DNA of 64,000 nt. Origin: an uncultured Gammaproteobacteria bacterium (GTDB lineage: Bacteria; Patescibacteriota; Microgenomatia; UBA8517). Positions 7,700-61,745 of this stretch are shown piece after piece (position 1 is the stretch's first letter; each line of letters starts with the position of its first letter). The translations under genes were made by a program, and so were the position numbers. The notes beneath the pieces were generated by a model. It had not been told where the DNA came from. It saw nothing but the letters and a program-made list of their open reading frames with translations, and made no database searches. The stretch covers positions 7,706-71,705 of the forward strand of contig CAYSEQ010000002.1 in assembly GCA_964430475.1 (NCBI GenBank), written 5' to 3'.

Positions 7700-8180
7700 C
7701 CTTATCAATAAGTCCCGTAGGTCTTACAATACAAGAAGAATGTATGTTGCCAACCTGTTTTTGAGTTTATCAAAGGCTTAAGAGAAAAATACCCAAGATT
7801 AGGTAAGGAGAAAATCAAAATTCTTCTTGATCAATACTGTCAAGAAAACAATCTCAAAACTATTTCTGTCTCCAAAATTGGCAGGATTATCAAAAAGAAC
7901 AACTGGTTTTTATACCTTGGAAAAAGAACTAAACAGACTGTTAAACAAAACAAGAAAAGAGTCTTTGGTTGGTTAGGTTGATAACCCAGGAGATTTATTC
8001 CAGATAGATACCCTGATTAGATTTGAGCATAAAGTCAAAAGATACATCCTCACTGCCTGTAATGTTGTTTCTAAGTTTTCTTTCGCCTTTGCCTATAAAT
8101 CTCATAGCTCTAAACAACCCTCTGATTTTAAGGTCTATGCTAGGATGATTTTGGAATTTTACAGGAAGAAATTGGATTAA
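7700..8180 (+). pseudogene. Decayed IS transposase N-terminal HTH region and start of the DDE domain, broken over several frames
   Basis: Fragments YPRLGKEKIKILLDQYCQENNLKTISVSKIGRIIKKN and IPGDLFQIDTLIRFEHKVKRYILTACNVVSKFSFAFAYKS lie in different frames with stops between them. Confidence 0.55.
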
Positions 8181-40043: not shown

Positions 40044-40160
40044 GCCCTTCTTTGGAAGCTTTCTTGAGTACCGGGGATGGGTTTTCAACAGCGAACCCTC
40101 CCCGGGAAAAGAAAGCAAAAAAGTAGTTAGTAGTTGGTTGTAAGTTGTAAGAATAAAAAA

Positions 40161-43034: not shown

Positions 43035-43339
43035 GAAATTTTCTAAACTTTTTGGAGAAACTACATTATTAATCTTTGCTATTTTTGTCTTTTTATATTC
43101 TTTATACAAGGTAGGCGTTTATCTTAAGGATTTTGTTTTTTCGTCTCCAGGTTTTTAATTTTTTATTATATATCTGCCCACAGTTTTTATAAGTAACCTG
43201 TAATAAAATTAGAACGCTATACTCAAAAATATTTAAAAGTTTTGCCTCAAAGACTTTTAAATTTGCACTTTAGTCAACTTCCAAAATATTTAAAACAAAA
43301 AAGGGTTGAAACAGATTTTATAAGTGTTTAATATGGATT

Positions 43340-45610: not shown

Positions 45611-46108
45611 ATGAAAAATAATCAATTTTTTAGTCCAACAAAGGGATCAATAAGCGCGTTAGAAATGATTGACGAGATCGCCTCATTTATTGATGAGGAA
45701 CCGAGTAAATTTTACCGACTGGTTATTGGTACAGACAGTCAGGTAAGAAAAATTAATGGAGAGTCTGAAATTGATTTTGTTACTGCGATTGTGGTTCACC
45801 GAATTGGAAAAGGAGGGAGGTATTTTTGGAAAAAGGAAAAAAGGAATGGGCGTCCTCCGGTTCTACGCGATAAAATTTACACAGAGACACTAATTTCTCT
45901 TGATGTTGCCCAAGAGATAGTTCCTAAGATTAGAAAACTTATTTCTCCAGGAAAATACGACCTTGAGATCCATATAGATGTGGGGTCTTTGGGTCCAACA
46001 AGGGAGATGATTCGTGAAGTAGTTGGAATGGTGAATGGAAATGGGTTTATAGCAAAAACGAAACCAGATTCGTGGGGAGCCTCAACGATCGCAGATAAAC
46101 ATACATAA
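45611..46108 (+). CDS. Hypothetical protein preceding archease-rtcB
   Basis: 165-aa ORF (…LVIGTDSQ…DFVTAIVVHR…). No confident family assignment. Confidence 0.4.
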   Translation: MKNNQFFSPTKGSISALEMIDEIASFIDEEPSKFYRLVIGTDSQVRKINGESEIDFVTAIVVHRIGKGGRYFWKKEKRNGRPPVLRDKIYTETLISLDVAQEIVPKIRKLISPGKYDLEIHIDVGSLGPTREMIREVVGMVNGNGFIAKTKPDSWGASTIADKHT

Positions 46109-46167
46109 TCTAGGTTTTTTAAGTCTTAAGGGACTTGCCTTCCCTTATATAAAAAGACTTAATCCAG

Positions 46168-46602
46168 ATGAAATTTAATTTTTTGGCCAATGTAGCAACC
46201 TCGGATCTTGCATTTGAGGCCTTCGGAAAGGATTATAATGAGCTTTTTGGAAATGCAGCGCTAGCTTTAGAATCTGCACAAGTTGATTTGGCAAGTGTCA
46301 AACCTAATATTGTTAAAAAGATTAAGATTAAGGGTGGATCTTTAGAAGATCTACTTTTTTCTTTTCTTGAAGAATTGGTATTTCTTAAGGATTCCGAGCA
46401 AATGTTATTTAGTCAAGTAAGTTGCATAGTTGAGACGGATGACGCTAACTTCATTTTAAAAGCTAAACTTAGGGGTGAACGAATTAATCCCCAAAAACAT
46501 AAATTAGGAGTTGATGTAAAAGCAGTAACTAAGCACTTATTTAAAATTGAAAAAAGACCTCTTAAAAAAGATCTTATGTGTAGGGTAGTCTTAGATGTAT
46601 GA
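46168..46602 (+). CDS. Archease (RtcB activator)
   Basis: 144 aa. Position directly upstream of rtcB. N-terminal …DLAFEAFG… resembles the archease HTADxA/E region. Confidence 0.6.
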   Translation: MKFNFLANVATSDLAFEAFGKDYNELFGNAALALESAQVDLASVKPNIVKKIKIKGGSLEDLLFSFLEELVFLKDSEQMLFSQVSCIVETDDANFILKAKLRGERINPQKHKLGVDVKAVTKHLFKIEKRPLKKDLMCRVVLDV

Positions 46603-46687
46603 GACTTCGTTGAAATTTTCTTCTTCAGAATTCTTCAAGCCCTGTCCTTTTGTTTAAAAAAAGAAGTGATAAAATAAAGCAAAAAAT

Positions 46688-48151
46688 ATGGAAGCAAAAC
46701 TTTTTGAGAGATTCAAAAAGGTTGAAGAAGGAATTTGGGAATTACCTAAAACATACCGAAAGGGGATGAAAGTTCCAGTCAGGATTGTTGCGACGGAAAA
46801 AATTTTAAAAGAGTTAGACGATGGAGCGGTTGATCAGGCTGTCAATGTCGCACAATTACCAGGAATTGTTGGTGCTTCCTGGATGATGCCTGATGCGCAT
46901 TGGGGATATGGTTTTCCTGTTGGGGGTGTGGCGGCATTTGATCTTGAAACTGGCATAATATCCCCAGGAGGAATTGGATTTGATATAAATTGCGGAATGA
47001 GATTGTTAATTACTAACCTCAGTGAAAAAGATATCAAACCCAAAATCTCCAAACTAATTGATCATCTTTTTTCTTCTATTCCCATTGGAGTCGGTGCTTC
47101 AGGGTCTATTAGACTTAATACTTCAGAGTTTAAGGAGGTGATGTTTAAAGGAGCTTCCTGGGCAATAGAAAAGGATTTGGGTTGGGATGAAGATATTTTT
47201 GCCATTGAAGAGAATGGAGTCATTAGTGGGGCAGATCCGGATGCTATTTCGGAGAAGGCTACATTAAGAGGAATAAATCAGCTTGGGACATTGGGGAGTG
47301 GAAATCATTATCTTGAGGTTCAGAAAGTGGAAAGGGTTTTTGATTCAAAAAGAGCAAGCGAATGGGGTATAGAGTCTGAAGGTCAAGTTGCAGTAATGAT
47401 TCATTGTGGGAGTAGAGGTTTTGGACATCAGGTAGGGAGTGATTATCTAAGTTTGTTTGAAAAGGCGATGGAAAAGTACGGGATAAAAGTACCCGATAGA
47501 CAGCTGGCTTGCGCGCCAATTAACTCCCCTGAAGGCAAGCGCTACCTTTCAGCTATGGCATGTGCAGCGAATAATGCCTTTTGCAATCGCCAAATAATTA
47601 CCCACAAAGTCAGAGAAGTTTTTTCGTATATTTTTGGAGTGTCTCCAAGGAAACTGGGAATGAAGCTCGTATACGATGTAGCTCATAATATAGCAAAGAA
47701 AGAAAGTTATAAGGTTAGTGAGACTGGTTCAGAAATTAATTCCACAAAAGACAAAGAAATAAAAAATTTTGAGAAAGACTTAATGGTGCATCGAAAAGGG
47801 GCTACGCGTGCATTTCCTGATCAGCCTGTAATTATTGGCGGTTCAATGGAAACAGGGTCCTTTCTTTTGGTCGGGACATTGGATGCCGTAAAGAAGACTT
47901 TTGGATCAACCGCTCATGGGTCAGGTAGAACAATGAGCAGAACGAGGGCCAAAAAGATTATTGAGGGTAGGTCTTTACAGAAGAATATGCTTTCAAGGGG
48001 CATTTATGTGAAATCTGCATCGTTTTCCGGGCTTGCCGAAGAAGCAGGTATTGCTTATAAGGATATCTCAGAGGTAGTTAAGAGTGTTTCCCTAGCTAAT
48101 ATTTCCCAACCTGTAGTGTCTTTTAAGCCTTTAGGTAATATAAAAGGTTAA
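46688..48151 (+). CDS. rtcB: RNA-splicing ligase RtcB (3'-phosphate/5'-OH RNA ligase)
   Basis: …GFDINCGMRL…, …GSGNHYLEVQ…, …HCGSRGFGHQV…, …AHNIAKKE…, …HGSGR… metal- and GMP-histidine motifs. Confidence 0.9.
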   Translation: MEAKLFERFKKVEEGIWELPKTYRKGMKVPVRIVATEKILKELDDGAVDQAVNVAQLPGIVGASWMMPDAHWGYGFPVGGVAAFDLETGIISPGGIGFDINCGMRLLITNLSEKDIKPKISKLIDHLFSSIPIGVGASGSIRLNTSEFKEVMFKGASWAIEKDLGWDEDIFAIEENGVISGADPDAISEKATLRGINQLGTLGSGNHYLEVQKVERVFDSKRASEWGIESEGQVAVMIHCGSRGFGHQVGSDYLSLFEKAMEKYGIKVPDRQLACAPINSPEGKRYLSAMACAANNAFCNRQIITHKVREVFSYIFGVSPRKLGMKLVYDVAHNIAKKESYKVSETGSEINSTKDKEIKNFEKDLMVHRKGATRAFPDQPVIIGGSMETGSFLLVGTLDAVKKTFGSTAHGSGRTMSRTRAKKIIEGRSLQKNMLSRGIYVKSASFSGLAEEAGIAYKDISEVVKSVSLANISQPVVSFKPLGNIKG

Positions 48152-48256: not shown

Positions 48257-49336
48257 ATGAAAGCCATAATTCCAACAGGTGGAAGAGGCACAAGAATGCA
48301 GCCTCTGACATTTTCCACAAACAAGCATTTTATTCCTGTTGCTAATAAACCCTTAATCTTTTATCCAATTGAAACCGTAGCAGAAGCCGGTATTAAAGAT
48401 GTGGCAATAACTTATAATCCTGGTTGGCTTGATTTTGTCAAAAAATATTTAGGTGACGGAAGTAAATGGGGTTTAGAATTTACCTATATACTTCAAGAGG
48501 AGCCAATTGGTTTAGCCAATATTATTGAAGTTTGCGAGCAATATATCCAAAAGGATAGATTTTTACTACATCTAGGAGATAATATTTTCACAGAAGGGAT
48601 AAAGGAATTAGTTGGATATTTTGAGAGAGAAAAACCTCAAGGTTTGGTCGCAAAAGTAATACATCCAGAAAATTTTCGTCTGGGTGTTCCTGTATTTGAT
48701 AAAAGAGGTAGGTTGAAAGATTATCTCGAAAAACCTAAAAATCCTCCGAATAAGTATGCTATTCCAGGAATTTATTTTTTTGATAGCGTGGTTTTTGGTT
48801 GTTTCAAAGGTAAGGATAGGATAAAACCTTCTGAAAGAGGAGAATACGAGATTGTTGAACCTTTTAAATGGCTTATAAAAAGAGGCTTTCGTGTTGATGT
48901 TGTTGAATATAAAGGGAAGTGGCTAGATCCTGGAAAATTTGATGATTGGATTGAATCTAATCAGTTTCTTTTAGACAAGAACACCTCTTTCCAAATTAAA
49001 AGTAAAGTCGGAAAAGATAGCAAAATAGTTGGCCGAGTTAGTATAGGCTTGAGGTGTAAGATTAAAAATTCAGAAATAAGAGGCCCTGTGATTATTGGAG
49101 ATGATGTACTTATTATTGATTCTTATATTGGACCATACACCTCAATTGACGACGGATGTTTAATTGAAAAAAGTAGAGTTGAGAATAGTGTTTTGATGCA
49201 GAATGTAAAAATTGTAAAAGTAAATCAGTCTTTAGATAATTGTCTTATTGGGACACAAAGCGAGATTAAGGAATCAGATGGTCATTCAAATTGCTTAGAG
49301 CTTTTTGTGGGAGAAAAAAGCATTATAAGACTATGA
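48257..49336 (+). CDS. Sugar-1-phosphate nucleotidylyltransferase (long-form RmlA-like with C-terminal left-handed beta-helix)
   Basis: …AIIPTGGRGTRMQPLTFSTNKHFIPVANKPLIFYPIE… N-terminal NTP-transferase motif. Hexapeptide-repeat-like C-terminus. Heads the rmlBCD operon. Confidence 0.7.
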   Translation: MKAIIPTGGRGTRMQPLTFSTNKHFIPVANKPLIFYPIETVAEAGIKDVAITYNPGWLDFVKKYLGDGSKWGLEFTYILQEEPIGLANIIEVCEQYIQKDRFLLHLGDNIFTEGIKELVGYFEREKPQGLVAKVIHPENFRLGVPVFDKRGRLKDYLEKPKNPPNKYAIPGIYFFDSVVFGCFKGKDRIKPSERGEYEIVEPFKWLIKRGFRVDVVEYKGKWLDPGKFDDWIESNQFLLDKNTSFQIKSKVGKDSKIVGRVSIGLRCKIKNSEIRGPVIIGDDVLIIDSYIGPYTSIDDGCLIEKSRVENSVLMQNVKIVKVNQSLDNCLIGTQSEIKESDGHSNCLELFVGEKSIIRL

Positions 49337-50340
49337 AACTTTTAGTGACCGGTGGAGCTGGTTTTATTGGCTCAAATTTTATTCGTTATTGGTTGCAAAA
49401 CTACCCCAACGATAAGATCATAAATTTAGACAAACTTACCTACGCTGGTAATCTTTCTTCTACTAGGGATTTTTCTTCCAATAAAAATTATACCTTTGTG
49501 AAAGGGGACATTTGTGATCCTAAGATAGTTGGCGAGCTTATGGGTGGTGTGGACTATGTAGTTCATTTTGCTGCGGAAACTCATGTGGATAGATCTATAT
49601 TCAACCCCTTTATTTTTGTGAAAACAAATGTTTTGGGGACACAGGTTCTTTTGGAAGCTGCCCTAAAAAATAGAGTGAAAAGATTTCATCATGTATCTAC
49701 TGATGAGGTTTTTGGTTCCCTTCCTCTGAAAGGAAAGGAAAAATTTAGTGAAAAAACTTCTTATAATCCCAGAAATCCCTATTCAGCAAGTAAAGCTGCT
49801 GCAGATTTTTTGGTAAGAAGCTATCACGAAACTTATGGTTTGAATGTGACAATCACTAACACTTCCAATAATTTTGGTCCTTACCAGGATCCAGAGAAAT
49901 TTATTGCCCGATCAATAACCAATCTTATTGAGGGTGAGCCTATAAAGATATATGGTCAAGGCAAGAATATTCGCGACTGGCTTTATGTTGAAGATCACTG
50001 TCGTGCTATTGACTTGGCTTTGAAGAAGGGCAGAGATGGAGAAACCTACCTTGTAGGCGGATTAACAAAGGATCTAACCAACCTGGATGTTGCTGAAAAG
50101 TTATTGAAGATTTTTGGTTATAATAAGTCCTATATTAAATTTGTTAAAGATAGATTAGGTCATGATCAGCGCTATTCCATCAACTGGAGAAAGATAAAGA
50201 AAGAATTAGGATGGGAACCAAAGCATGATTTTGATATCTGGCTTAAGAAAACCGTTGATTGGTATAAGGAAAATGCTTGGTGGTGGAAACCGTTAAAAAG
50301 AAGAGCAGAGAAATTTTACCAAATTACTGGGCAAAATTAA
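49333..50340 (+). CDS. rmlB: dTDP-glucose 4,6-dehydratase
   Basis: …LLVTGGAGFIGSNF…, …HFAAETHVDRS…, YSASK catalytic motif. Confidence 0.9.
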   Translation: MKLLVTGGAGFIGSNFIRYWLQNYPNDKIINLDKLTYAGNLSSTRDFSSNKNYTFVKGDICDPKIVGELMGGVDYVVHFAAETHVDRSIFNPFIFVKTNVLGTQVLLEAALKNRVKRFHHVSTDEVFGSLPLKGKEKFSEKTSYNPRNPYSASKAAADFLVRSYHETYGLNVTITNTSNNFGPYQDPEKFIARSITNLIEGEPIKIYGQGKNIRDWLYVEDHCRAIDLALKKGRDGETYLVGGLTKDLTNLDVAEKLLKIFGYNKSYIKFVKDRLGHDQRYSINWRKIKKELGWEPKHDFDIWLKKTVDWYKENAWWWKPLKRRAEKFYQITGQN

Positions 50341-50894
50341 TGCATAGAAATAAATCTTCTTATATAGTTGAAACCTCTATACCTGGTCTTTTGGTTATCA
50401 AAAAGCCTACTTTTAATGATAAAAGAGGTTTTTTTAGAGAAGTGTTTCGTTTAAAGGAGTTAGCGGAGTGTGGTGTTGAGTTTAAACCCGTTCAGATGAA
50501 CCATTCATTTTCTCAGCCTAGAGTGATAAGAGGACTTCATGCCGAAAATTGGAATAAACTAGTTTATCCAATAAGTGGAAAAATGTTTGCTGCAGTTGTA
50601 GATATTAGACCTGAGAAAAAAAGTTTTGCCAAGGTTGAGACATTCATTTTTGACGAAAGAGATCCATTTGGGCTATTTATTAGCAAGGGTTTGGCAAATT
50701 CAATATGTGTAATCGGTGATGTAGGGGTTCATTACATTTATCTTGTAGACGCCTATTATGATGGTAAAGATACGAGGGCTATTTCGTGGGATGATCCAGA
50801 TTTGTCTATTGATTGGCCTGTTAAAAATCCAATATTATCAGATAGGGACAAGAATAATCCGAGGTTAAGGGACATCTTTCCTGAAAAATTTTAA
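50340..50894 (+). CDS. rmlC: dTDP-4-dehydrorhamnose 3,5-epimerase
   Basis: …FNDKRGFFREVF…, …RGLHAE… cupin motifs. The ATG overlaps the rmlB TAA by 1 nt. Confidence 0.85.
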   Translation: MHRNKSSYIVETSIPGLLVIKKPTFNDKRGFFREVFRLKELAECGVEFKPVQMNHSFSQPRVIRGLHAENWNKLVYPISGKMFAAVVDIRPEKKSFAKVETFIFDERDPFGLFISKGLANSICVIGDVGVHYIYLVDAYYDGKDTRAISWDDPDLSIDWPVKNPILSDRDKNNPRLRDIFPEKF

Positions 50895-50899
50895 AAAGT

Positions 50900-51811
50900 A
50901 TGAGAGGTCTAACATTGGTAATTGGTTCAGAGGGTTTGGTGGGATCGCGATTTGTGGAAATATCTGAAAATAGAAGCGCATTTATACTTCCAAGACAGGT
51001 GGAACTAGATATAACAAAATTCTCAGAAATTAAGGCTGTGATCTCTTCATATAATTTTACAAGTGTGGTGAATTTTGCCGCTTTTACAGATGTTTCTAAA
51101 GCAGAGGAACAAAGGGGAGATAAAAATGCCGAATGTTGGCAAGTAAATGTTGAGGGTGTGAAAAACTTGGTTGAGGCAGTAAAGCCTTATAAAACACGGA
51201 TCCATTTTATTCAAATTTCAACCGACATGGTATTTCCCGGAACGAAGGACGATCCAGGACCTTATCTTGAGAATCATCCTCTGGATCATGATCTAAGTCA
51301 ACTTTCATGGTACGGTTATACCAAGGCGGAAGCCGAGAAAATAATTCGGAATGAATTGGGTTTATTTTCGACAGTGGTAAGAATTAGCTATCCTGTCAGA
51401 GCAAGGTTTGATGCAAAACTTGACTATATTCGAAAGATTCTAAATCTATTTGATGAAGGGAAACTCTACCCTATGTTTTCTGATCAGCAGATTTCTATTA
51501 GCTTTATAGATGAAGTGTGCAAAGCTTTGGATATTATTATTTCACAGAATCATAGAGGCACTTTTCATGTTAGTTCAAGAGATACAACCACACCCTATGA
51601 ATTAGCATCTTATGTTTTAGAAAAATTAAGAGGAGTAAAAGAAGTTGTTATGCCAACCACACTCGATCAATTTTTGCTTCAGGGGAATAACCCTCTACGT
51701 TATCCCAAATATGGTGGTTTGAGTGTTTCTATTACACAGCATAAATTAGGGGTAACCTTCAGCTCTTGGAGAGAAATAGTGGATAAAATAATTACTCAAG
51801 GTCTAAACTAA
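50900..51811 (+). CDS. rmlD: dTDP-4-dehydrorhamnose reductase
   Basis: …LVIGSEGLVGSRF… Rossmann motif, YGYTKAEAE catalytic YxxxK. 303 aa. Confidence 0.8.
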   Translation: MRGLTLVIGSEGLVGSRFVEISENRSAFILPRQVELDITKFSEIKAVISSYNFTSVVNFAAFTDVSKAEEQRGDKNAECWQVNVEGVKNLVEAVKPYKTRIHFIQISTDMVFPGTKDDPGPYLENHPLDHDLSQLSWYGYTKAEAEKIIRNELGLFSTVVRISYPVRARFDAKLDYIRKILNLFDEGKLYPMFSDQQISISFIDEVCKALDIIISQNHRGTFHVSSRDTTTPYELASYVLEKLRGVKEVVMPTTLDQFLLQGNNPLRYPKYGGLSVSITQHKLGVTFSSWREIVDKIITQGLN

Positions 51812-51959: not shown

Positions 51960-54900
51960 ATGAGTGATTTGGAAATAATTGTACCTATTAGTGAGGAGGT
52001 TAGTATTAGTAAAATTGAAGAATTTTACCAGAGATTAGATTTTTCTTTGGTATCCGCTGGAATAGATTACAAAGTAATTTTTGTAGACATTTCATCTAAA
52101 GATTCCGTGAAAGATATTGTTCGTCACCTCACTAATAGTCACTTAAGTTTTCCTTATGAGTTTAATTTAGGAAAGAATAATCTAATTTATCACGCAAGTT
52201 TACATAAGAAGAAAGCAAATTCTAGAAATGGCAAGATAGAACTTTTTTTAAACAAAGTAAAAGAGAATGGGGTGTCTCAAATATTAGAAGCATTTAAGTC
52301 AACAACTTCCCCATATCTTGCCTTGATTGACAGCAATTCTCAGTACCCTCTAGAGGCTATAGCTAAAATGTATTCGCTTCTTAAAGATTATGATGTAGTT
52401 GTTCCTAAAGTTAAAAAATATACTACACCTACATTTCAGCCAAAATTTACTACTAAATTATATCGCTTTTTTAAGGCAAAGGTGTTTAAAAAGTCGGATA
52501 TGGATATTCAGTTCGATCTTGGACTTTTCAGAAGAGACCTTGTCGAAATTCTGTATGAGGTTGGAATAGAAGAACAACATAATTTGGGCTTAGCCCTACT
52601 TCTTACAGCCCAAAAAGTTGGTATGAAAATAGGTTCGGTAGATGAAGAGTTTCAGGGAAGAAAGGAAAATACTTCGATTTTAAATTTTCTCAAGTCATCT
52701 CTAAAATCAAGGTCTGAAAATACAAACTCCATTGTCAATCCTACATATCAAAAATTTAATAAAAATGGCAAAGTTTTTTACAAAGGTAAAGAATTTATCA
52801 CTTACACCGATCTGCCTTTTGGTCTTTCAGCTATAAAAGTATTAACCCTATGGCAAAAAATTTTTTTACTTAGTTTTATTTATTTTTTGCTTTTTGGGTT
52901 TTTTTTAAACATCTCTTATACTTTAGTTTTAATTTTTGCATTTTTTACGATTTTATATTTTTCAGATTTGGTATTTACAATTTTTATTCTTTATAAAAGT
53001 GTGTCTTCTTCACCTGAGATTAGGTTTAAAAAAATAGAGCTTCAGAATCTTGAGGAAAAAAATCTACCTATTTATAGCGTTATCTGCCCATTGTACAAAG
53101 AGGTAGAAGTTTTACCAGATTTCATTGGTGCCATAAGCAAGATAGATTGGCCAAAGGATAAGCTTGATGTAATTTTGATTTTAGAAGAAGATGACTATGA
53201 AACAAGAACCGCACTTAAGGATTTTAGCCTTCCTGAGTATTTTAGAATTTTAGTTGTTCCAGATTCGCTACCCAAGACAAAGCCAAAGGCTTGCAACTTT
53301 GGCCTTATGCATGCAAGGGGAGAATATTTAGTAATTTACGATGCAGAAGATAGACCCGAGCCGCTTCAATTGAAAAAAGCTTATTTAGCATTTCAAAGGG
53401 TTGGGCAGGATGTGGTTTGCCTTCAATCAAAACTAAATTATTATAATTCAGATCAAAATTTACTTACTAAACTTTTTACAGCGGAGTATTCGTTGTGGTT
53501 TGATTTAATTCTTCCAGGTTTACAGTCAATAAATACTATTATTCCGCTTGGAGGTACAAGCAACCACTTTAGGGTAGATGCATTGTGTAAATTAAGAGGT
53601 TGGGATCCTTTCAATGTTACCGAAGATTGCGATTTGGGTGTCAGAATTTTTAAAAGTGGTTATAAAACTGCCATTATTGATTCCACAACATTTGAGGAAG
53701 CAAATAGTAATGTCAAAAGTTGGATCAGGCAGCGCTCACGCTGGATTAAAGGTTATATTCAAACCTATCTGGTGCACACTAGGAACCCGTTGGATTTTGT
53801 TAGGAAACACAAATTTCATGCGTTACTTTTTCACTTGATTATCGGTGCTAGGACGGTTTTTGTCATTCTAAATCCGATTCTTTGGATTCAAACCTTATCT
53901 TACTTTCTTTTCCATGATATTTTTGGTCCAATTATTGAATCTTTCTATCCTGCACCCATTTATTATTTTGCTGTAGTTTGTCTAGTGTTTGGGAATTTTT
54001 TATACCTTTACAACTTCATGATTGGTTGCGCAAAAAGAAGGTATTGGTACTTGGTAAAGTATATGTTTTTTACACCATTTTATTGGTTAATGTCCAGCAT
54101 CTCAGCTTTGATCGCCTTTTATCAATTAGTTAAAAAACCTTACTTTTGGGAAAAAACTCAACACGGTTTACATTTAGGTATTCTTGATAGGCAAATCTTT
54201 AGTCCATTTACAGAGCTTACTCCTAAAAGTAACATTCTTAATCCTTTTAGATTCCTTAAGTTTATTTTCATAGTTGCAAAGAAAAATTTTTTAGATTTTG
54301 CCTATTTGTTCGATGATCTTAAGATTTCTTATTATCTTAAGGAAGGTAGGATCAAGATTTTGATATTTAACTGGCGGGACATTAAACATAAATGGTCAGG
54401 AGGGGCGGAGGTATATGTTCATAACTTAGCCAAAGAGTGGGTTAAAAGGGGTCACAAAGTAACTATTTTTTGCGGTTGGGATGGTGAGGGTAGAAGGGAC
54501 GAGATTATTGATGGCGTAAAGGTTATAAGACGAGGTGGTTTTTACACTGTTTATCTTTTTGCTTTTTTGTATTATATTTTCAAATTTAGGGGAATTTTTG
54601 ATGTTGTTATAGATAGCGAGAATGGCATTCCATTTTTCTCTCCCCTTTTTGTTAGGATACCTAGTATTTTATTAATCTATCATGTACATCAGGAAATTTT
54701 TAGAAAGTATCTCCCTTTTCCGTTGGCTAATTTGGCAAGTTTTCTAGAATCAAGATTAGTTCCTCTTGTCTATAAAAAATCTTCTGTGGTAACCATATCG
54801 CAGTCTTCGAAAAACGAAATTGTTCAGCGAGGTTGGATTGACGAGGAGAGAATCAGCATAATATACCCCGGTACTGATAAAAAACTTTTTGTACAGTCTC

Positions 54901-55496
54901 CTAAAACGGAGTATCCTTCTTTTATATATTTAGGCAGGCTTAAACCATGGAAGCGCGTAGATGTTGCAATTAAGGCTTTTTCTTTAATTTCTAAAAAATT
55001 TCCTGAAGCAAGATTTACTGTTGCAGGTTTTGGAGAAAGTTTGCCAAGTTTAGTAAAGCTTGTCAGAGATTTGGGTCTAAAAGATCAAGTTGATTTTATA
55101 GGTGAGGCTCCAGAGGATAAAAAAGCCTTGCTTTTTTCTAAAGCTTGGGCTGCGATTCAACCGTCGTTATTTGAAGGATTTGGTATTACCGTGATTGAAG
55201 CAAATGCTTCTGGTACATGCGTTATCGCATCGGATACTTCCGGACTGCGGGATTCAGTTGTAAATGCTAAGACAGGGATCCTTGTCCCAGTAGATGATAT
55301 TGAAAAGCTAAGCCAGGCTATGGAAAGGATTATCGTTGATTCTCAATTACGTGAGAGTCTATCAAATGCAGCGAGAATCTGGGCAAAAAATTTTGATTGG
55401 GAAGTTTCTGCAAAGAAGTTTGAGGAGATTATAAAGAAAGTGGTCTTTATAAGTCAGGTTCTACCTGAGTATAGCTTTATCGGCATCCGTGTCTAA
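51960..55496 (+). CDS. Tri-domain membrane glycosyltransferase (1178 aa): GtrB/DPM1-like GT2 domain, multi-TM processive GT2 (cellulose/chitin/PNAG-synthase-like) and C-terminal GT4 domain
   Basis: Domain 1 …LEIIVPISEE…DYDVVVPKVKK…. Domain 2 …YDAED…, …TEDCDLGVRI… and …QRSRWIKG… (D,D,TED,QxxRW) between TM blocks. Domain 3 …EGFGITVIEANASGTCVIASD… (GT4 E-x7-E). Confidence 0.8.
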   Translation: MSDLEIIVPISEEVSISKIEEFYQRLDFSLVSAGIDYKVIFVDISSKDSVKDIVRHLTNSHLSFPYEFNLGKNNLIYHASLHKKKANSRNGKIELFLNKVKENGVSQILEAFKSTTSPYLALIDSNSQYPLEAIAKMYSLLKDYDVVVPKVKKYTTPTFQPKFTTKLYRFFKAKVFKKSDMDIQFDLGLFRRDLVEILYEVGIEEQHNLGLALLLTAQKVGMKIGSVDEEFQGRKENTSILNFLKSSLKSRSENTNSIVNPTYQKFNKNGKVFYKGKEFITYTDLPFGLSAIKVLTLWQKIFLLSFIYFLLFGFFLNISYTLVLIFAFFTILYFSDLVFTIFILYKSVSSSPEIRFKKIELQNLEEKNLPIYSVICPLYKEVEVLPDFIGAISKIDWPKDKLDVILILEEDDYETRTALKDFSLPEYFRILVVPDSLPKTKPKACNFGLMHARGEYLVIYDAEDRPEPLQLKKAYLAFQRVGQDVVCLQSKLNYYNSDQNLLTKLFTAEYSLWFDLILPGLQSINTIIPLGGTSNHFRVDALCKLRGWDPFNVTEDCDLGVRIFKSGYKTAIIDSTTFEEANSNVKSWIRQRSRWIKGYIQTYLVHTRNPLDFVRKHKFHALLFHLIIGARTVFVILNPILWIQTLSYFLFHDIFGPIIESFYPAPIYYFAVVCLVFGNFLYLYNFMIGCAKRRYWYLVKYMFFTPFYWLMSSISALIAFYQLVKKPYFWEKTQHGLHLGILDRQIFSPFTELTPKSNILNPFRFLKFIFIVAKKNFLDFAYLFDDLKISYYLKEGRIKILIFNWRDIKHKWSGGAEVYVHNLAKEWVKRGHKVTIFCGWDGEGRRDEIIDGVKVIRRGGFYTVYLFAFLYYIFKFRGIFDVVIDSENGIPFFSPLFVRIPSILLIYHVHQEIFRKYLPFPLANLASFLESRLVPLVYKKSSVVTISQSSKNEIVQRGWIDEERISIIYPGTDKKLFVQSPKTEYPSFIYLGRLKPWKRVDVAIKAFSLISKKFPEARFTVAGFGESLPSLVKLVRDLGLKDQVDFIGEAPEDKKALLFSKAWAAIQPSLFEGFGITVIEANASGTCVIASDTSGLRDSVVNAKTGILVPVDDIEKLSQAMERIIVDSQLRESLSNAARIWAKNFDWEVSAKKFEEIIKKVVFISQVLPEYSFIGIRV

Positions 55497-57402
55497 AATG
55501 AAAATTCTTTTTTCAAATTATGACGATATAAAAAATCCTTACTACGGAGGAGGCGGAGCTTTTGCGATACATGAAGTGGCAAAAAGGCTTGCAAAGAAGC
55601 ATTTAGTAAAAGTTGTAACTGGTAGTTATCCTAATGCCAAGGATGAGATTATAGATGATGTTTTTTACAAAAGAATAGGACCTTCTTTGGTAGGTCCGAG
55701 AATTGGCCAAATCTTATATCATCTGTTTCTACCGATCTTTATTAGGAAAGAGGAATTTGATATTCTCTTTGAAAGCTTTACACCGCCGCATTCAACCTCA
55801 TTCACACCTATTTTTACAAGAAAACCTGTCGTGGGTATTGCTCACATGCTGGCATCTGAGGATATGCAAAGGAAGTACAAGTTACCTTTTGGCTTGGTTG
55901 AAAAAATTGGACTTAAATTTTATAAGGATATAATTGTTGTTAATCCCGAGATTAAAAAGGACATATTAAAAGCGAACCTTAAGGCTAGAGTAAAAGTTAT
56001 ACCAAATGGGGTCGATATACCTAAAAAGAGAAAAGTTAATTCAAAAAAAGAACACATACTCTTTATAGGCAGAGTTGAAGTAAATCAAAAGGGATTAGAT
56101 CTATTGTTGGAAGCTTTCAGGAAAGTTTTATCTAGCAAAACAAAGATAAGATTGGTGATTGCAGGAGGAGGTTTAGAGAAAGAAATAAAATCTTTAAAGA
56201 AACAAGTTTCTTTATTGTCGCTTAACAAAAAAGTAAAAATATTGGGACGGGTTGAAGGGGCTTTAAAACAGAAAATCTTTGAAAAAGCATTTTTTGTTGT
56301 CATTCCCTCAAGATTTGAGACTTTTTCAAGAGTTGCCTTGGAAGCGTGTAGCTTTTCGCTTCCAGTGTTATGCTTTGACATCAAGGGCTTAAAATGGTTG
56401 CCTAAAAGTCTTTCTTTGAAGGTTAGACCTTTTGATGTTGATGAACTCTCCAAAGGTATATTAAAGCTTTATTCTGATAAGAAATTGAGAAAGAAGTTAT
56501 CAAGAGGTGCGTTCGAATTCTCTAAAAAGTTTAATTGGGAGGAAATTTCAAAGGAATATGAAGAATATGTTTATAAGTTTTACCCTTTTTCTAGAAAAGA
56601 AAGAAATTTTGAAAAAGTACTTAAAAGGATTATTTCGGGGAAAAAAGAATGTTTCTTTATTTCTCCTCATCTAGACGACGCTATTTTTTCAGTGGGGGGA
56701 ATAATTTCTTACCTTGCGGGTAGGACAAATGTGTACATCATAAATGTCTTTACCAAAGCCTCAAGAGGTCCTTATACACTATCTGCAAGAAGAGCAATTT
56801 TAGGTAAAGCTAAAGATGCCCAAGATCTTTATCGTATAAGAAAGATTGAAGATAAAAGGGTATTTGAGAGTTTGGGAGTAAAATCTTTGAATTTGGGATT
56901 TACTGAAGCTTTATATCGGAGAACTAATATCAGAAAGCTTAAAAAATTAACCATGTTTTTAGGAAAAGTTTTCCCGGAGTTTCTCTTTCTTTACCCAACT
57001 TATTGGTTTCATATAAATAGAGGTAAGATTCATCAAGAGGATAACGAACTAATTGAGAAAATTTCTAAGAAATTAAGAAAGCTTATTCCAAAAAGAAAAA
57101 AAGTTTTAATTTTTTGTCCTCTTGCAGACAACAGCCATGTTGATCATCTGTTGGTGAAGGAGGCTGTATGTAGGAATTTCAAGAATGTTTGGTTTTGGCA
57201 GGACTTGCCCTATCTAGCCGGTAAGGAATTTGAAATCTCTCAGAAATTTTCAGGTAGCCGTTACTTATTTAGGGTACATCCAGAGGTAAAAAAGCCGCTT
57301 ATATCTTTTTACAGATCTCAGCTTCCTAAAAGTTTAGAAAAGATGAAGTGTGAATTGTTTATGAATGAAAACGTCTGGATAGATTCCAAGAAAAATTTAT
57401 GA
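55489..57402 (+). CDS. Bifunctional GT4 glycosyltransferase / PIG-L (LmbE-like) N-acetylglucosaminyl deacetylase fusion
   Basis: N-terminal GT4 (…YYGGGGAFAIHEVAKRLAKKH…, E-x7-E region). C-terminal PIG-L motifs …FFISPHLDDAIFSVGGIIS… and …ADNSHVDHLLV…. Confidence 0.75.
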   Translation: MSKMKILFSNYDDIKNPYYGGGGAFAIHEVAKRLAKKHLVKVVTGSYPNAKDEIIDDVFYKRIGPSLVGPRIGQILYHLFLPIFIRKEEFDILFESFTPPHSTSFTPIFTRKPVVGIAHMLASEDMQRKYKLPFGLVEKIGLKFYKDIIVVNPEIKKDILKANLKARVKVIPNGVDIPKKRKVNSKKEHILFIGRVEVNQKGLDLLLEAFRKVLSSKTKIRLVIAGGGLEKEIKSLKKQVSLLSLNKKVKILGRVEGALKQKIFEKAFFVVIPSRFETFSRVALEACSFSLPVLCFDIKGLKWLPKSLSLKVRPFDVDELSKGILKLYSDKKLRKKLSRGAFEFSKKFNWEEISKEYEEYVYKFYPFSRKERNFEKVLKRIISGKKECFFISPHLDDAIFSVGGIISYLAGRTNVYIINVFTKASRGPYTLSARRAILGKAKDAQDLYRIRKIEDKRVFESLGVKSLNLGFTEALYRRTNIRKLKKLTMFLGKVFPEFLFLYPTYWFHINRGKIHQEDNELIEKISKKLRKLIPKRKKVLIFCPLADNSHVDHLLVKEAVCRNFKNVWFWQDLPYLAGKEFEISQKFSGSRYLFRVHPEVKKPLISFYRSQLPKSLEKMKCELFMNENVWIDSKKNL

Positions 57403-58484
57403 ATAATTTAGAGGTTCAAATAATTAAAAAAATAGACAAGGATTTTTTAAAGAAATGGTATAAGATTTGGAAAAATGCTTATAACCGTCAGTTTTATAAC
57501 TCTCCTGAATGGTTTATTTCAGCACTTAAGGTCTTTGAAGCGAAGGACTATTTAGTTTTTACAGTGTCTAAGGACTCTGAAGTAAAATTAATACTTCCTT
57601 TAATTGGAAAGAAATTTTTGGGGAGGAAAATTTATATGAGCCCTGGCGAAAAATTTTTGGATAAAACTACAATTCTTTTAAAAGATAAAGATTTTGATGT
57701 CTTGAAGGCAGTTTTTAAGAAGTTGGCAAATTTTGGAAATTTTTACTTAAGTGAAGTTGACGATTGGGTGAAAGAAGAGTTTGAAGAAACAAGAATTGGC
57801 GGTAAGACTTTTATTTCTTCAGAATCCTTTTATTTGCCTTTGGAAGAAGCATTTGAATTTTTATCCAAAAAACAAAAAAGTAAGATAAAGAATAAATATA
57901 TAAAAAATAAAAAAAGACTTACCTTTCTTCGTTTAAGAGGGGAAAAAATAATCAATCGCATTGATGATATTCTGAAAATTGATTACTTGAGTAGTAAGAG
58001 AGAAAAAAGCAGAGAAACTTTTTCTGACAAGAATTCAATTAGGTTATTAGAGATTATCTCCAAACATTCCAAGGAGAGTAAGCCGGATTTAAGCATATTA
58101 TATTTTGACCGTTTTCCGGTTGTTTTTAGCTTCGGAGTAATTTCCGATGGGGTCTACCATGCGAAGTACACCTCTTTTGTTAAAAAGTTTGCTTTTCTTT
58201 CACCCGGCAAACTCTTGCTTTACATGCTTTTACCTAAACTTAGGGCTGAAGGTGTAAAAATTTTTGACTTCTCGAGAGGAGACAGTACCTTGAAAAAGGA
58301 ATTTACTCCTTATTTTGAAAAATATTATGATATTTTTTACTCTAAAGATAAATTTTTAGCCCTTTTATTGCCAAATTTGATTCTTCTAAAAGATTTTATC
58401 ATTGGTCATGAAAAGCTTTATCAATTTTTACTTTTTATACGAAGGTATGTTAAACTTTTCGGCTCATTTTTGAAAATTTTTTAA
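57399..58484 (+). CDS. FemAB-like / CelD-like GNAT acyltransferase (Acetyltransf_6 family)
   Basis: …WYKIWKNAYNRQFYNSPEWF… N-terminal signature. ~360 aa two-lobed GNAT architecture. Confidence 0.55.
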   Translation: MNNLEVQIIKKIDKDFLKKWYKIWKNAYNRQFYNSPEWFISALKVFEAKDYLVFTVSKDSEVKLILPLIGKKFLGRKIYMSPGEKFLDKTTILLKDKDFDVLKAVFKKLANFGNFYLSEVDDWVKEEFEETRIGGKTFISSESFYLPLEEAFEFLSKKQKSKIKNKYIKNKKRLTFLRLRGEKIINRIDDILKIDYLSSKREKSRETFSDKNSIRLLEIISKHSKESKPDLSILYFDRFPVVFSFGVISDGVYHAKYTSFVKKFAFLSPGKLLLYMLLPKLRAEGVKIFDFSRGDSTLKKEFTPYFEKYYDIFYSKDKFLALLLPNLILLKDFIIGHEKLYQFLLFIRRYVKLFGSFLKIF

Positions 58485-58486
58485 CT

Positions 58487-60100
58487 ATGAAAAGGTATTT
58501 AAGTAATTTATTTTTAGTGTTTTTCTGTATGGCGATTCTCGTTCTCATTATAAGGGGTATTTCTGGAAATCCTAGCGAGGAAGACCTTAATAAAATGGAG
58601 TGGAAAGAAGAAGGACCTTTTGAACTTTCAAATGAAAGAGGAAGATTTGCACTTCTTTATTCCTGGATTGAAAATCATTCTTTGTATTTTTCTAAGAATT
58701 TAGCCCTTTTTGCTTCCCCGGATTTGGCGTATAAGGATGGGAAATATGTTTCTCTATTCAATCCCGGCGTTTCTTTTATGGCAATTCCAGGATACATGTT
58801 AGGTAAAATTTTAGGTATTTCACAAATATTTACATTCCTTATTATCTCACTTTTTGCTTCGTTGAATGTAGTTTTAGTGAAGAATATTTCCAGGAAAATT
58901 GGTGCGAGCGACAGAATCTCGACGATCGCTTCGTTAATCTTTCTTTTTGCCACACCCGCTTTAGTTTACGCAACCAGCTTTTACCAACATCACATCTCTA
59001 CATTTTTATTGCTTCTAAGTATATATCTACTTTTGGAAAAAGTAGGTATTTTTACCCTTTTTCTAGTCTTTTTTTTATATGGAGTTTCGATAACAGTTGA
59101 TTATCCAAATGTCTTTTTAATGTTTCCTATTGTAGTTTATTCAATGAGCAGGTTTTTTATTATAGTGAAAACCTCAGCGAACTTCCAAATAGTATTTGAC
59201 CTTAAAAAGTTGATTTCTCTTACAGGGGTATTAGTGCCACTACTTTTTTTGTTTTGGTTTAATAAAGTCTCATATGGCTCGGCATTATCAATATCAGGTG
59301 CAGTTCAAAGAGTAACGAAAATAGATCCACAGGGAAATCCGATCAGAGATGAAAATATAGCTAATATTGCAAGTGATACCATAGACCGAGGTTTAAGTTT
59401 TTTTAAAACAAGAAATATACCTAGGGGGATTTATACTCTTATTCTAAGCGAGGATAGGGGGGTAATCTTTTTTGCTCCGGTTCTTATTTTTTCTCTAATC
59501 GGAATACTAGAATTTGGAGAAAAAAGAAGAAAGATCTTTTTACTTCTGGCTTCCATTATTTGTATTAATGTTCTGCTTTATAGTATGTGGGGAGACCCAT
59601 GGGGTGGTTGGTCTTTTGGCTCGCGTTATCTTATACCAAGTTATGCGATAGTCTCTATCTTTATTTCCAGACTTTTTATGAAGCTAAAAGGGGACAAACT
59701 ATTTCTGGGAGTATTTTTTTTAGCTTCAGTTGTGTCCATCTTTATCAATTTGCTAGGGGCAATAACTTCCAAGGCTAATCCTCCCAAAGTTGAAGCAGAG
59801 AGCCTTACCGCGTTGTCAGGAATTGAGCAAAAGTATACTATTGAGCGAAACCTAGATTTTCTATTCGAAAAGGGCACGAAGTCTTTTGTTTACGAAAAAT
59901 ATTTAAAGGATTTTCTTACTCCATGGGAATATTATTTTTTGGTCTCTTTCCTGATTTTGATACCCTATGGAATCTATTTCTTTAAAATATCGCGTTTGGC
60001 AAAATCTCCAGTTTTTGAGTTGGTCTTGGTAAAGAACAAGGGTTTGAATGACCTAAAACTAGAATTAAGACTTTTTAGTAAGGAAAAGCTTTTTAAGTAA
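58487..60100 (+). CDS. Polytopic membrane protein, GT-C-fold glycosyltransferase-like (PMT/ArnT/GT39/GT83-like)
   Basis: More than 10 predicted TM helices, with loops between them. Confidence 0.5.
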   Translation: MKRYLSNLFLVFFCMAILVLIIRGISGNPSEEDLNKMEWKEEGPFELSNERGRFALLYSWIENHSLYFSKNLALFASPDLAYKDGKYVSLFNPGVSFMAIPGYMLGKILGISQIFTFLIISLFASLNVVLVKNISRKIGASDRISTIASLIFLFATPALVYATSFYQHHISTFLLLLSIYLLLEKVGIFTLFLVFFLYGVSITVDYPNVFLMFPIVVYSMSRFFIIVKTSANFQIVFDLKKLISLTGVLVPLLFLFWFNKVSYGSALSISGAVQRVTKIDPQGNPIRDENIANIASDTIDRGLSFFKTRNIPRGIYTLILSEDRGVIFFAPVLIFSLIGILEFGEKRRKIFLLLASIICINVLLYSMWGDPWGGWSFGSRYLIPSYAIVSIFISRLFMKLKGDKLFLGVFFLASVVSIFINLLGAITSKANPPKVEAESLTALSGIEQKYTIERNLDFLFEKGTKSFVYEKYLKDFLTPWEYYFLVSFLILIPYGIYFFKISRLAKSPVFELVLVKNKGLNDLKLELRLFSKEKLFK

Positions 60101-60116: not shown

Positions 60117-61745
60117 ATGGAAATTTTTGTTAAAGATTTTACTTTCTTTTTAATTTTAGACAGGAGAAAAATTTTCAATTTTTTCAAAAAAATTGAAAAA
60201 ATCTTGCCTTTGGTGATTGTTGTCTTTCTTTTTGTACTGTCCCTTTTTGCATCTTTCTTGTTTTACAATAATGGACTCTCTCTTGCTTACAATGATGCTC
60301 GATCACACTTAAATATTGCAAGAAGGGTTGTTGAAGGGCTAAAAACAGGTGCTGCACAGCTTGGGAGTGTTTGGCTTCCCTTACCCCATGTCCTTATGTT
60401 ACCAACTATCTGGAATGACTTTTTTTGGCATTCCGGAGCCTCGGGTACACTAGTTTCTCTAGTCTCATTTATTTTAACTGGTATTTTTATTTACAGATTC
60501 CTAGAAAAGTTAAAGGTAAGAATTTTTGGGAGGATTTTTGGTGTTTTGGTTTTCAGCACAAATCTAAATATTTTATATTTGACTTCTACGGCAATGACCG
60601 AGATGCTACTTTTAGCAACTCAAACTTTAAGTGTTTATTATCTTGTAATCTGGGCGAGAAAGGAAAGAATGCTAGACTTGCTAAAAAGTGCTTTTTGGGT
60701 AATGTTAGCTACACTTACGCGTTATGATGGTTGGTTTCTTTTTGTCTTTTGTACTTTTCTTATTGGGATTATTGGTTTAAGAAAAAGGGTGTTAAAAGAG
60801 GTAGAGGGATATCTATTTTTCTTTTTAACTTTGGCTGGATTTGGCATCTTTTTGTGGTTTTTGTGGAATCTGGTAATTTTTAAAGATCCCCTTTATTTTG
60901 TTTATGGCCCTTATTCTGCTTATGCACAACAGTTGGGCTTAGAAAAAGCAGGGGAGTTACTGACGAAGGGTAATCTTTTAGCATCTTTGAAAACATATTT
61001 TTACGCAATCTTTTATAACCTCTATACAATACCAGTGTTTATCGGTTTTAGTGGTATTTTTATCTTGTACTTTGACAAGAGTTTGAAAAAAAGTGTGAGA
61101 CTTGCTACCTTAGCCTTGTTAGCCCCTATCCTTTTTAACATTATTGCTCTTTATTTAGGACATTCAGTTTTGTTCCTTCCAGAAGTAGTTGGGAAGACTT
61201 GGTTTAATGTAAGGTATGGGATGTTGGCTGCACCTGCAATTTGTATAGGAATAGGTTTTATCGTGGATAGACTAAGAAGATATTCACCAATATTAATTGG
61301 TTTAATTCTTTTTACATTGTTTTTTGCGTTTTTGGGTTTTGACGCAGTGACAATTGATGATGCACTTTATGGAGCAAGTCAAAAAAATGTAAAAGAAGTA
61401 TCCTCATGGCTTAGAGGAAATGTATCCAAAGAACCGGGTTTTGTTTTGATTTCTGCGGCAAGTCATGATGCGATCATTTTTTCCTCTGGATTGCCGATGA
61501 AACGTTTTATTCATGAGGGTACCGGAGATTATTGGAAGCTTGCAGTTGAGAATCCCAACAGGTGGGTTAAATGGATAGTTATGCGAACTTACGATATGAA
61601 TGATTTAACTTACAAGGAAGTGCATGATGCAAGTGGGTTTAAATATTTTGAACTTGTGGAGCATTATCCTTTTGCTGACATCTATCAACTAAAAAAAGAT
61701 TATTGGAGTGAGGTTGTGACAACACCGGTTTTGTCAAGAAAATAA
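60117..61745 (+). CDS. Second polytopic GT-C-like membrane protein
   Basis: About 10 TM helices in the N-terminal two-thirds plus a C-terminal soluble domain. Adjacent to and co-oriented with the 58487 gene. Confidence 0.5.
   Translation: MEIFVKDFTFFLILDRRKIFNFFKKIEKILPLVIVVFLFVLSLFASFLFYNNGLSLAYNDARSHLNIARRVVEGLKTGAAQLGSVWLPLPHVLMLPTIWNDFFWHSGASGTLVSLVSFILTGIFIYRFLEKLKVRIFGRIFGVLVFSTNLNILYLTSTAMTEMLLLATQTLSVYYLVIWARKERMLDLLKSAFWVMLATLTRYDGWFLFVFCTFLIGIIGLRKRVLKEVEGYLFFFLTLAGFGIFLWFLWNLVIFKDPLYFVYGPYSAYAQQLGLEKAGELLTKGNLLASLKTYFYAIFYNLYTIPVFIGFSGIFILYFDKSLKKSVRLATLALLAPILFNIIALYLGHSVLFLPEVVGKTWFNVRYGMLAAPAICIGIGFIVDRLRRYSPILIGLILFTLFFAFLGFDAVTIDDALYGASQKNVKEVSSWLRGNVSKEPGFVLISAASHDAIIFSSGLPMKRFIHEGTGDYWKLAVENPNRWVKWIVMRTYDMNDLTYKEVHDASGFKYFELVEHYPFADIYQLKKDYWSEVVTTPVLSRK

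Follow-up and report, generated by a model that had tools for sequence, protein, structure and literature searches.

The closest described relatives of the protein analysed here are membrane-integrated glycosyltransferases of family 2 (GT2), including the processive synthases BcsA, PgaC and hyaluronan synthase (HAS). Some GT2 enzymes are fused to regulatory domains: E. coli NfrB, the synthase of the N4 glycan receptor, is an exopolysaccharide synthase activated by cyclic di-GMP (c-di-GMP), in which an MshEN domain is joined to a GT2 with DxD, TED and QxxRW motifs (PMC8669469), and MshEN–glycosyltransferase fusions had already been noted when the MshEN domain was defined (PMC5013675). In genomes of iron oxidisers, genes resembling xagB of the Xanthomonas biofilm polysaccharide locus xagABCD adjoin a bcsB-like gene (PMC4643136). 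No fusion of XagB to other glycosyltransferase modules has been reported, and three-component systems, in which a GT2 is combined with a flippase and a GT-C protein, consist of separate small proteins that are not fused to a synthase. Here, we analysed a 64,000-nucleotide stretch of DNA (the window; positions 7,706 to 71,705 of the forward strand of contig CAYSEQ010000002.1, assembly GCA_964430475.1), which is titled as an uncultured Gammaproteobacteria bacterium and is placed by GTDB in the Patescibacteriota (Microgenomatia, UBA8517). A single open reading frame (ORF; window positions 51960–55496, + strand) encodes an N-terminal GT2-like module (N), a synthase-like central GT2 module (C) and a GT4 module, a combination that differs from both XagB and the three-component systems.

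The ORF starts with ATG and has zero internal stops over its 1178 codons. An initial annotation, made from the sequence alone, had proposed three glycosyltransferase modules in one polypeptide and had suggested per-domain hidden Markov model (HMM) searches as a check. Pfam searches agree with that proposal: the N-terminus, scanned alone, gave a weak Glycos_transf_2 match (aa 85–195, 38 bits), aa 372–677 gave a strong Glyco_tranf_2_3/Glyco_trans_2_3 match (E 1e-16 to 1e-21), and aa 814–1140 hold a complete GT4 (Glyco_transf_4 and Glycos_transf_1, E 1e-17 and 1e-41). All quoted motif strings lie where they had been placed, with ALIDSNSQYP at aa 121–130, TEDCDLG at aa 554–560, QRSRWIKG at aa 591–598 and the E-x7-E motif, EGFGITVIE, at aa 1072–1080. 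Hydrophobic helices lie on both sides of the central domain (aa 297–349 towards the N-terminus; aa 619–650, 665–692 and 696–725 towards the C-terminus). The fusion is genuine and not a merge by sequencing or assembly error, an objection foreseen by the annotation, because the protein is recorded identically in two assemblies, one from NCBI (on a 148.6-kb contig) and one from Logan (run SRR11582147), and at least 28 homologues with 47–57% identity share the same N–C–GT4 layout from end to end.

A profile of module C, built from 16 family members and spanning aa 270–745 of the window protein, matched E. coli BcsA at E 1.6e-19, R. sphaeroides BcsA at 8e-11 and Xenopus HAS1 at 5.6e-7. In the alignment to E. 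coli BcsA (7lby), DAED pairs with DCDH, VTEDCDLG with VTEDAHTS, QRSRW with QRIRW and KPKACN.GL with AKAGNINNAL, all in register, so that the likeness to processive synthases claimed for the TED/QxxRW core is confirmed and the contrary outcome, motifs that do not align, is not what we found. The motifs LEEDD (D412), DAED (aa 461–464), TED (aa 554–556, nt 53619–53627) and QRSRW (aa 591–595, nt 53730–53744) are invariant in 56 homologues, and conservation along the protein is highest in the catalytic domain (~72% mean identity among homologues versus ~50% overall). An AlphaFold 2 (AF2) model of this module on its own (aa ~270–740) reached a predicted local distance difference test (pLDDT) score of 80 and a predicted template modelling (pTM) score of 0.84. 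Its best Foldseek match in the PDB was BcsA 9b8v (E 1e-14, template modelling score (TM-score) 0.61 on the query), followed by Chlorella-virus and Xenopus HAS and then by archaeal PcManGT and yeast Chs1; the BcsA and HAS matches have TM-scores of 0.5–0.6 on the query over ~440–480 aligned columns. The top curated NCBI families were PgaC_IcaA (67.5 bits, model positions 36–392 of 407) and then CelA. Four clear transmembrane (TM) helices (2+2) and one further hydrophobic helix accompany the glycosyltransferase domain, and the membrane helices carry many invariant polar and aromatic residues. Among these helices, the second predicted TM helix of the module contains D336 (nt 52965–52967), invariant in 56 of 56 aligned homologues and a candidate binding site for a cation or for lipid phosphate. 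Module C has the fold and catalytic signature of membrane-integrated GT2 synthases and is an orthologue of no characterised member.

Module C resembles BcsA (E. coli 7lby/9b8v; R. sphaeroides 4hg6/4p00), its best match by both profile and Foldseek, in the register of its DxD, TED and QxxRW motifs, in the placement of QxxRW on an interface helix and in the TM helices that follow. In contrast to BcsA, to which it is ~20% identical, the window protein has fewer TM helices and additional N and GT4 modules; no PilZ or MshEN domain was matched by Pfam in the fusion protein, and no BcsB-family match was found among the downstream cluster genes scanned. Orthology to BcsA or PgaC was rejected on the missing PilZ domain, the missing BcsB-like match and the curated cut-offs given below. 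Like module C, PgaC/IcaA are small, with two TM helices at the N-terminus and a TM bundle at the C-terminus, and both the pga/ica clusters and the window cluster carry a sugar de-N-acetylase, which in the window is of the PIG-L type and fused to a GT4; unlike in pga/ica, no PgaD or IcaD accompanies the window protein. Class I HAS (Chlorella virus 7sp9, Xenopus HAS1 8smn) and Chs1 have the same membrane GT2 fold (Foldseek E 1e-14 to 1e-8), but are only 13–15% identical to module C, with no evidence for alternating donors. PcManGT (6yv7), an archaeal 'minimal cellulose-synthase-like' mannosyltransferase, also has few TM helices and is a good structural match, although its sequence similarity is confined to the first half of the glycosyltransferase domain and it is unfused. 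Several homologues are named 'glycosyltransferase XagB' by the Joint Genome Institute, a likeness by naming alone.

Module N is nearest in structure to Pyrococcus DPMS (5mlz, E 0.008) and ArnC (9hwj), and the N domain of an intact homologue matches ArnC (70.7 bits), PgfS (62), AglJ (57) and also dolichyl-phosphate hexose transferase, all below the equivalog cut-offs. By these nearest structures and family matches, module N descends from polyprenyl-phosphate sugar synthases of the GtrB/ArnC/DPM1/PgfS type. Among described systems, it is nearest to GtrB, ArnC, DPM1, PgfS and GacI and to the three-component systems, and relatives of the window protein likewise add flippase and GT-C-like partners. 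Of the 47 homologues that have the domain, 45 keep VDD.S.D, D(G/A)DLQYPPE and D.QSGLK(V)F in canonical form. In the window protein these motifs read VDISSKD, DSNSQYPLE and DIQFDLGLF, with DD changed to DI, D.D to DSN (aa 124–126, nt 52329–52337) and QSG to QFD; D43, D124 (the first Asp of DxD) and D182 are retained, and P0004 is the sole homologue with similar degeneration. The GtrB/DPM1-like domain with a degenerate DxD described by the annotation is thus upheld.

Divergence across the whole N domain follows the same pattern. Mean identity to relatives is 32% for the window protein and 25% for P0004, against 41–55% (mostly 45–55%) for all others, whereas the other modules of the window protein are conserved to the same degree as those of its relatives. 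In a rough neighbour-joining tree of the C and GT4 modules, the window protein groups with P0004 (ELN), P0002 (DSD) and P0005 (EAD), and this group adjoins forms from which the N domain has been lost. The domain still folds with moderate confidence in the AF2 model, with a low-confidence insertion at aa 61–90. The decay of N is specific to this lineage, and in the window protein the module is most likely inactive.

The GT4 module is intact. Both Rossmann halves score above the Pfam cut-off (PF13439, 64.6 bits; PF00534, 142.6 bits), R993, K998, E1072 and E1080 are invariant, and the fold matches MshA, BshA, PimA and PglA with TM-scores of ~0.8 on the targets, in keeping with the GT4 domain with E-x7-E that had been annotated. 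With these four enzymes it shares the GT-B fold, EX7E and the R/K phosphate-binding motif, but unlike them it is tethered to a membrane synthase. All scores against curated GT4 equivalogs are far below the cut-offs, including a weak match to monoglucosyl-diacylglycerol (MGlcDAG) synthase.

The window protein belongs to a large family. A pattern scan for the central module, using one genome per GTDB species, found relatives in at least 576 species representatives, almost all Patescibacteria, with Woese-, Gottesman-, Roizman-, Davies-, Ames- and Levybacteria (Microgenomates) among them. The Patescibacteria-type locus is found in many GTDB representative metagenome-assembled genomes whose records bear titles such as 'uncultured Gammaproteobacteria', 'Pseudomonadales' or 'Bdellovibrionales' (L008, L011, L012, L015, L018–L020 and many more); these titles look unreliable. 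Local HMMs, one set up for every module, were used to assign an architecture to the gene at 86 loci. The commonest form, N–C–MOP–GT4, has four modules and occurs at 41 loci, followed by C–MOP–GT4 (13), N–C (12), N–C–GT4, the type of the window protein (10), C–GT4 (5) and C only (3, some truncated where the contig ends). The MOP insertion, ~400 aa long with ~12 hydrophobic segments, is present at 54 of the 86 loci; in P0034 it reaches the Pfam cut-off for PF01943 (Wzx-type Polysacc_synt, 31 bits). Its insertion site corresponds to the low-confidence linker of the window protein, after aa 748–756, where that protein has a 57-aa linker alone and no MOP flippase domain.

The window protein is therefore a reduced N–C–GT4 derivative of a four-module enzyme, in which the MOP flippase has been lost and N is decaying. 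A correlation between the two is not supported: most N–C–GT4 forms keep canonical N motifs. Natural gene splits occur in several genomes, separating N–C from MOP–GT4, N from C–MOP–GT4, or N–C, MOP and GT4 from one another. Further domains are also added at the C-terminus in this fusion family: P0020 (1497 aa) has an extra GT2, and P0103 (1389 aa) has an RmlA-like nucleotidyltransferase, which directly ties that enzyme to sugar-nucleotide supply, probably of a deoxythymidine diphosphate (dTDP)-sugar. The view of the fusion as unusual is therefore not borne out. Every module is of a known type, and public databases already list homologues under the names 'glycosyltransferase' or 'XagB'. We found no description of the fusion in the candidate phyla radiation (CPR), Microgenomates or Woesebacteria in the literature searched, coverage of which was incomplete.

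Relatives outside the Patescibacteria place module C in a different setting. When the profile of module C was run in a full HMMER search against 1.84 billion representatives, 2979 clusters scored at E <= 1e-30. The best matches include Chloroflexota proteins such as P0169 (MCC7104120.1, L086:10001–13930), whose C-terminus is 50% identical to module C over 453 aa and ends 16 residues past WEKTDHG. These orthologues have as many as six stretches of MshEN, the c-di-GMP receptor domain, at the N-terminus, and they have neither MOP nor GT4. Directly 3' of the Chloroflexota gene lie a 539-aa homologue of M542 (L086:13927–15546; hhalign 99.4%, E 1.4e-21), one of two conserved polytopic membrane proteins encoded downstream of the fusion gene in the window, and then a BcsB-like protein. 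The other membrane protein, M537, is not a partner in Chloroflexota, and a BcsB-like gene was seen at the Chloroflexota locus only. That locus resembles the xagB–bcsB-like neighbourhood of iron oxidisers and looks like an undescribed c-di-GMP-controlled polysaccharide synthase system. NfrB shares the MshEN and GT2 logic with the Chloroflexota orthologues, not with the window protein; its MshEN is C-terminal, whereas theirs is N-terminal and repeated, and NfrB-type NCBIfam models give matches of only 15–18 bits.

Among the best-scoring representative-library proteins examined, 22 relatives, including P0165 and P0158, fuse C to an M542-family domain. An N-like GT2 stands in front in 4 of the 22, and one of those four (N–C–PMT_2) is followed by a GtrA-type flippase gene. 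No other partner accompanies the synthase module as constantly as the M542 family, which is adjacent in Microgenomates and Chloroflexota and fused elsewhere. These fusions link C with M542, and N with flippase and GT-C-like proteins. Together, the split-gene variants, the Chloroflexota MshEN/BcsB context and the C–M542 fusions point to a synthase-type envelope-glycan machine.

We assign a probability of roughly 0.55 to the reading in which module C is a synthase-type polymerase, GT4 adds an alpha-linked sugar and N is a dead remnant. The fusion would be one cytoplasmic-membrane protein of a conserved Microgenomates (Woesebacteria-like) envelope-glycan locus, with module C, an XagB-like GT2 of the BcsA/PgaC/HAS type, as its working core. 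A uridine diphosphate (UDP)-sugar would bind the cytoplasmic GT-A domain through LEEDD and DAED, the TED aspartate would serve as catalytic base and the tryptophan of QRSRW would hold the acceptor end. Module C would act processively, elongating a beta-linked glycan on the cytoplasmic face and moving it into or across the membrane between the helices of the module itself and, probably, of M542. GT4 would add its alpha-linked sugar on the same face, either to a lipid, primer or anchor or as a branch. Both ends of MOP domains lie in the cytoplasm, which GT4 must also face, and helix 762–782 is amphipathic, with five charges; helix 696–725 would therefore be interfacial and the WEKTxHG loop cytoplasmic. 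In relatives, the N-type enzyme may feed extracytoplasmic glycosylation through the fused MOP flippase and GT-C-like proteins, and the window protein would be a two-enzyme remnant (dead N, C and GT4) of the ancestral four-module enzyme.

Several observations weigh against this reading. The curated cut-offs are missed by a wide margin for PgaC_IcaA (TIGR03937, 67.5 versus 422.3 bits) and for CelA/BcsA (TIGR03030, 58.6 versus 699.1 bits; NF008558, 52.6 versus 992 bits), and module C has fewer TM helices than BcsA or HAS, its number being near that of the 'minimal' PcManGT. The invariant W730-E-K-T-x-H-G736 directly after helix 696–725 gave no alignment to any solved gating loop; we take it to resemble the FxVTxK/WGT(R/K) gating loops of synthases by pattern likeness only, and presumably it occupies a position, unaligned, comparable to that of the WGT(R/K) loop of HAS/Chs. 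A MOP/Wzx-type flippase fused right after C in most relatives suits a lipid-linked pathway no less than it suits a synthase channel. The whole-protein AF2 model (pTM 0.60) is uninformative on domain packing, and Asn can at times stand in for Asp at metal sites, which leaves the inactivity of N unproven. For all family members, the polymerase assignment draws on comparison with characterised enzymes.

The strongest alternative, which we consider unlikely although it has substantial points in its favour, is that module C is a membrane GT2 that glycosylates a lipid or lipid-linked acceptor by single addition, like PcManGT, beta-monoglucosyl-diacylglycerol synthase or glucosylceramide synthase. 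C and GT4 would then build a short lipid-linked glycan or glycolipid, which would be flipped by the fused MOP in relatives and by something else here and finished outside by GT-C-like proteins, following the logic of lipomannan/lipoarabinomannan or O-antigen. A MOP/Wzx-like domain that stands directly after C at 54 of 86 loci and stays with GT4 upon gene split would suit this scheme, as would the presence of only 2+2 clear TM helices. PcManGT, moreover, has a TM-score of 0.69 on the target and is the top phmmer match for the central segment alone, and GT4 resembles the lipid-acting PimA and weakly matches MGlcDAG synthase. Automatic annotation has labelled one XagB-like protein a beta-monoglucosyldiacylglycerol synthase (PMC4643136). 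The closest matches in sequence and in structure, membrane part included, are nevertheless the processive BcsA, HAS and PgaC; the Chloroflexota orthologues, without MOP or GT4, sit beside a BcsB-like gene under MshEN/c-di-GMP control, a hallmark of secreted-polymer synthases (PMC8669469); and no initiating phosphoglycosyltransferase was found among the genes scanned around the cluster. The annotation had read TED and QxxRW as a processive signature, and its alignment part stands, but the pattern is not exclusive to processive enzymes; D,D,D,(Q/R)xxRW occurs in glucosylceramide synthase too, a further point for the single-addition scheme.

The annotation had also suggested that all three modules are active, with N priming, C polymerising and GT4 decorating one polysaccharide. 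Three glycosyltransferase folds in one chain, the retained D43, D124 and D182 and an N domain that still folds would accommodate this, but we regard it as improbable because N is most likely dead here and its family makes polyprenyl-phosphate-sugar donors for decoration outside the membrane, not primers; the motifs substituted here are near-invariant elsewhere, the divergence of the domain is accelerated and sister lineages have lost it. That distinct genes were joined by frameshift or assembly error is exceedingly improbable: split versions in other genomes and a C–GT4 junction of low conservation and low model confidence are outweighed by the identical protein in two assemblies, the layout common to 28 full-length homologues, even longer fusions at 41 loci and an N-to-C junction formed by a conserved beta-hairpin.

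Returning to a synthase-type polymerase as the core, the N–C–MOP–GT4 family may go further and form a single-polypeptide assembly line, a proposal we make tentatively and hold to be rather less likely than its negation. It would couple a polymerase/exporter to a lipid-linked decoration route made up of a polyprenyl-phosphate-sugar synthase, a Wzx-like flippase and the GT-C-like M537 and M542, and would make the main wall glycopolymer, possibly containing rhamnose and glucosamine.

The synteny of the locus is shared across Woesebacteria-like genomes. The order starts with a CAP-domain protein and an RNaseH-like protein (in relatives with a sortase further upstream), followed by rmlABCD and the fusion gene; then come, often, a second GT4, an Acetyltransf_6/FemAB-like protein, M537 and M542 (~540 aa each) and a CarboxypepD_reg protein (Table 1). 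A de-N-acetylase is encoded in at least 50 related loci, of the PIG-L type in 17 (the window locus counted once) and of the CE4 type in 33, one locus having both. Because of the adjacent rml genes and the conserved de-N-acetylase, rhamnose and glucosamine are suggested to occur somewhere in the final glycan. M537 and M542 gave weak GT-C-type matches alone (PMT_2; the LA_3751/LA_3752 putative glycosyltransferase family), and profile search found no solved structure for either; that they are paralogues is not supported (hhalign probability 21%). The CarboxypepD_reg protein was considered as a BcsB analogue and has no similarity to it. A PelF/PelG-like reading of MOP–GT4 was likewise considered and appears unlikely: PelF was not among the top 25 families listed for the fusion, and the neighbouring GT4 gene scores only 27 bits against a PelF cut-off of 100. 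In the 64-kb window, Rfam gave no match, and promoter and terminator scans performed no better than on shuffled sequence.

Table 1. Modules of the fusion gene and genes of its cluster in the window (columns: feature, window position, strand, remarks).
rmlA, rmlB, rmlC, rmlD (dTDP-L-rhamnose synthesis)	48257..51811	+	directly upstream of fusion gene
Whole fusion ORF: N (degenerate GtrB/DPM1-like GT2), C (synthase-like GT2 with TM helices), GT4	51960..55496	+	1178 aa
Module N: polyprenyl-phosphate glycosyltransferase-like GT-A, degenerate motifs	51960..52739	+	aa 1-260
Conserved beta-hairpin (YKGK.FIT.T) and two N-terminal TM helices of synthase module	52761..53006	+	aa 268-349
Module C, GT-A catalytic domain	53052..53789	+	aa 365-610; LEEDD, DAED, TED, QRSRW
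Module C, C-terminal membrane part: helices 619-650, 665-692, 696-725 and loop W730-E-K-T-x-H-G736	53790..54179	+	aa 611-740
Linker, poorly conserved, low pLDDT, amphipathic helix 762-782	54180..54350	+	aa 741-797
GT4 (GT-B, retaining type)	54351..55454	+	aa 798-1165; EX7E nt 55173-55199
GT4 fused to PIG-L de-N-acetylase, 637 aa	55489..57402	+	start overlaps fusion-gene stop
Acetyltransf_6 (FemAB-like/GNAT) protein	57399..58484	+	downstream cluster
M537, polytopic membrane protein, weak GT-C-like matches	58487..60100	+	conserved downstream of fusion gene
M542, polytopic membrane protein, weak PMT_2 match	60117..61745	+	conserved partner of module C
CarboxypepD_reg protein, 437 aa	61822..63135	+	conserved last cluster gene

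Other features of the neighbourhood were noted alongside. The succession of GT4–PIG-L and Acetyltransf_6 (55489–58484) recalls a logic of transferring N-acetylglucosamine, deacetylating it and re-acylating the amine, as in MshA/MshB/MshD, PIG-A/PIG-L and NodC/NodB/NodA. Further upstream on the + strand, a 966-aa DUF11 repeat protein and the CAP-domain protein are encoded at 40134–44293, where relatives have a sortase (L002/L003), and this region looks like a cell-surface island. Between these surface-protein genes and the rml operon, genes for the RNaseH-like protein, archease and the RNA ligase RtcB lie at 45611–48151 (+); the archease–RtcB pair is missing at several syntenic loci. At the locus of a 954-aa C–GT4 relative (L002:7331–9585), rmlB and rmlD are each broken into a pair of ORFs. 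Both may have become pseudogenes, a sign that this relative could be losing its supply of rhamnose.

To our knowledge, next to nothing is known of the cell envelopes of CPR bacteria, only a few of which can be cultured. Because it occurs in at least 576 species representatives and sits in a fixed locus with rml genes, a de-N-acetylase, an acyltransferase and two membrane partners, the family stands out as a strong candidate for building the main surface glycan of these bacteria. If its four-module form is indeed an assembly line, it would be a hybrid, in ultra-small bacteria, of two pathways kept apart in every bacterium characterised so far. Naturally occurring fusions and fissions of N, C, MOP, GT4, M542 and MshEN offer a Rosetta stone for which activities cooperate, and the single-chain members are a ready target for cryogenic electron microscopy and in vitro polymerisation. 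The copy in the window would represent an evolutionary snapshot, with one module decaying and another already deleted; although this copy is a degenerate member, the family provides a good experimental entry to envelope biogenesis in the CPR.

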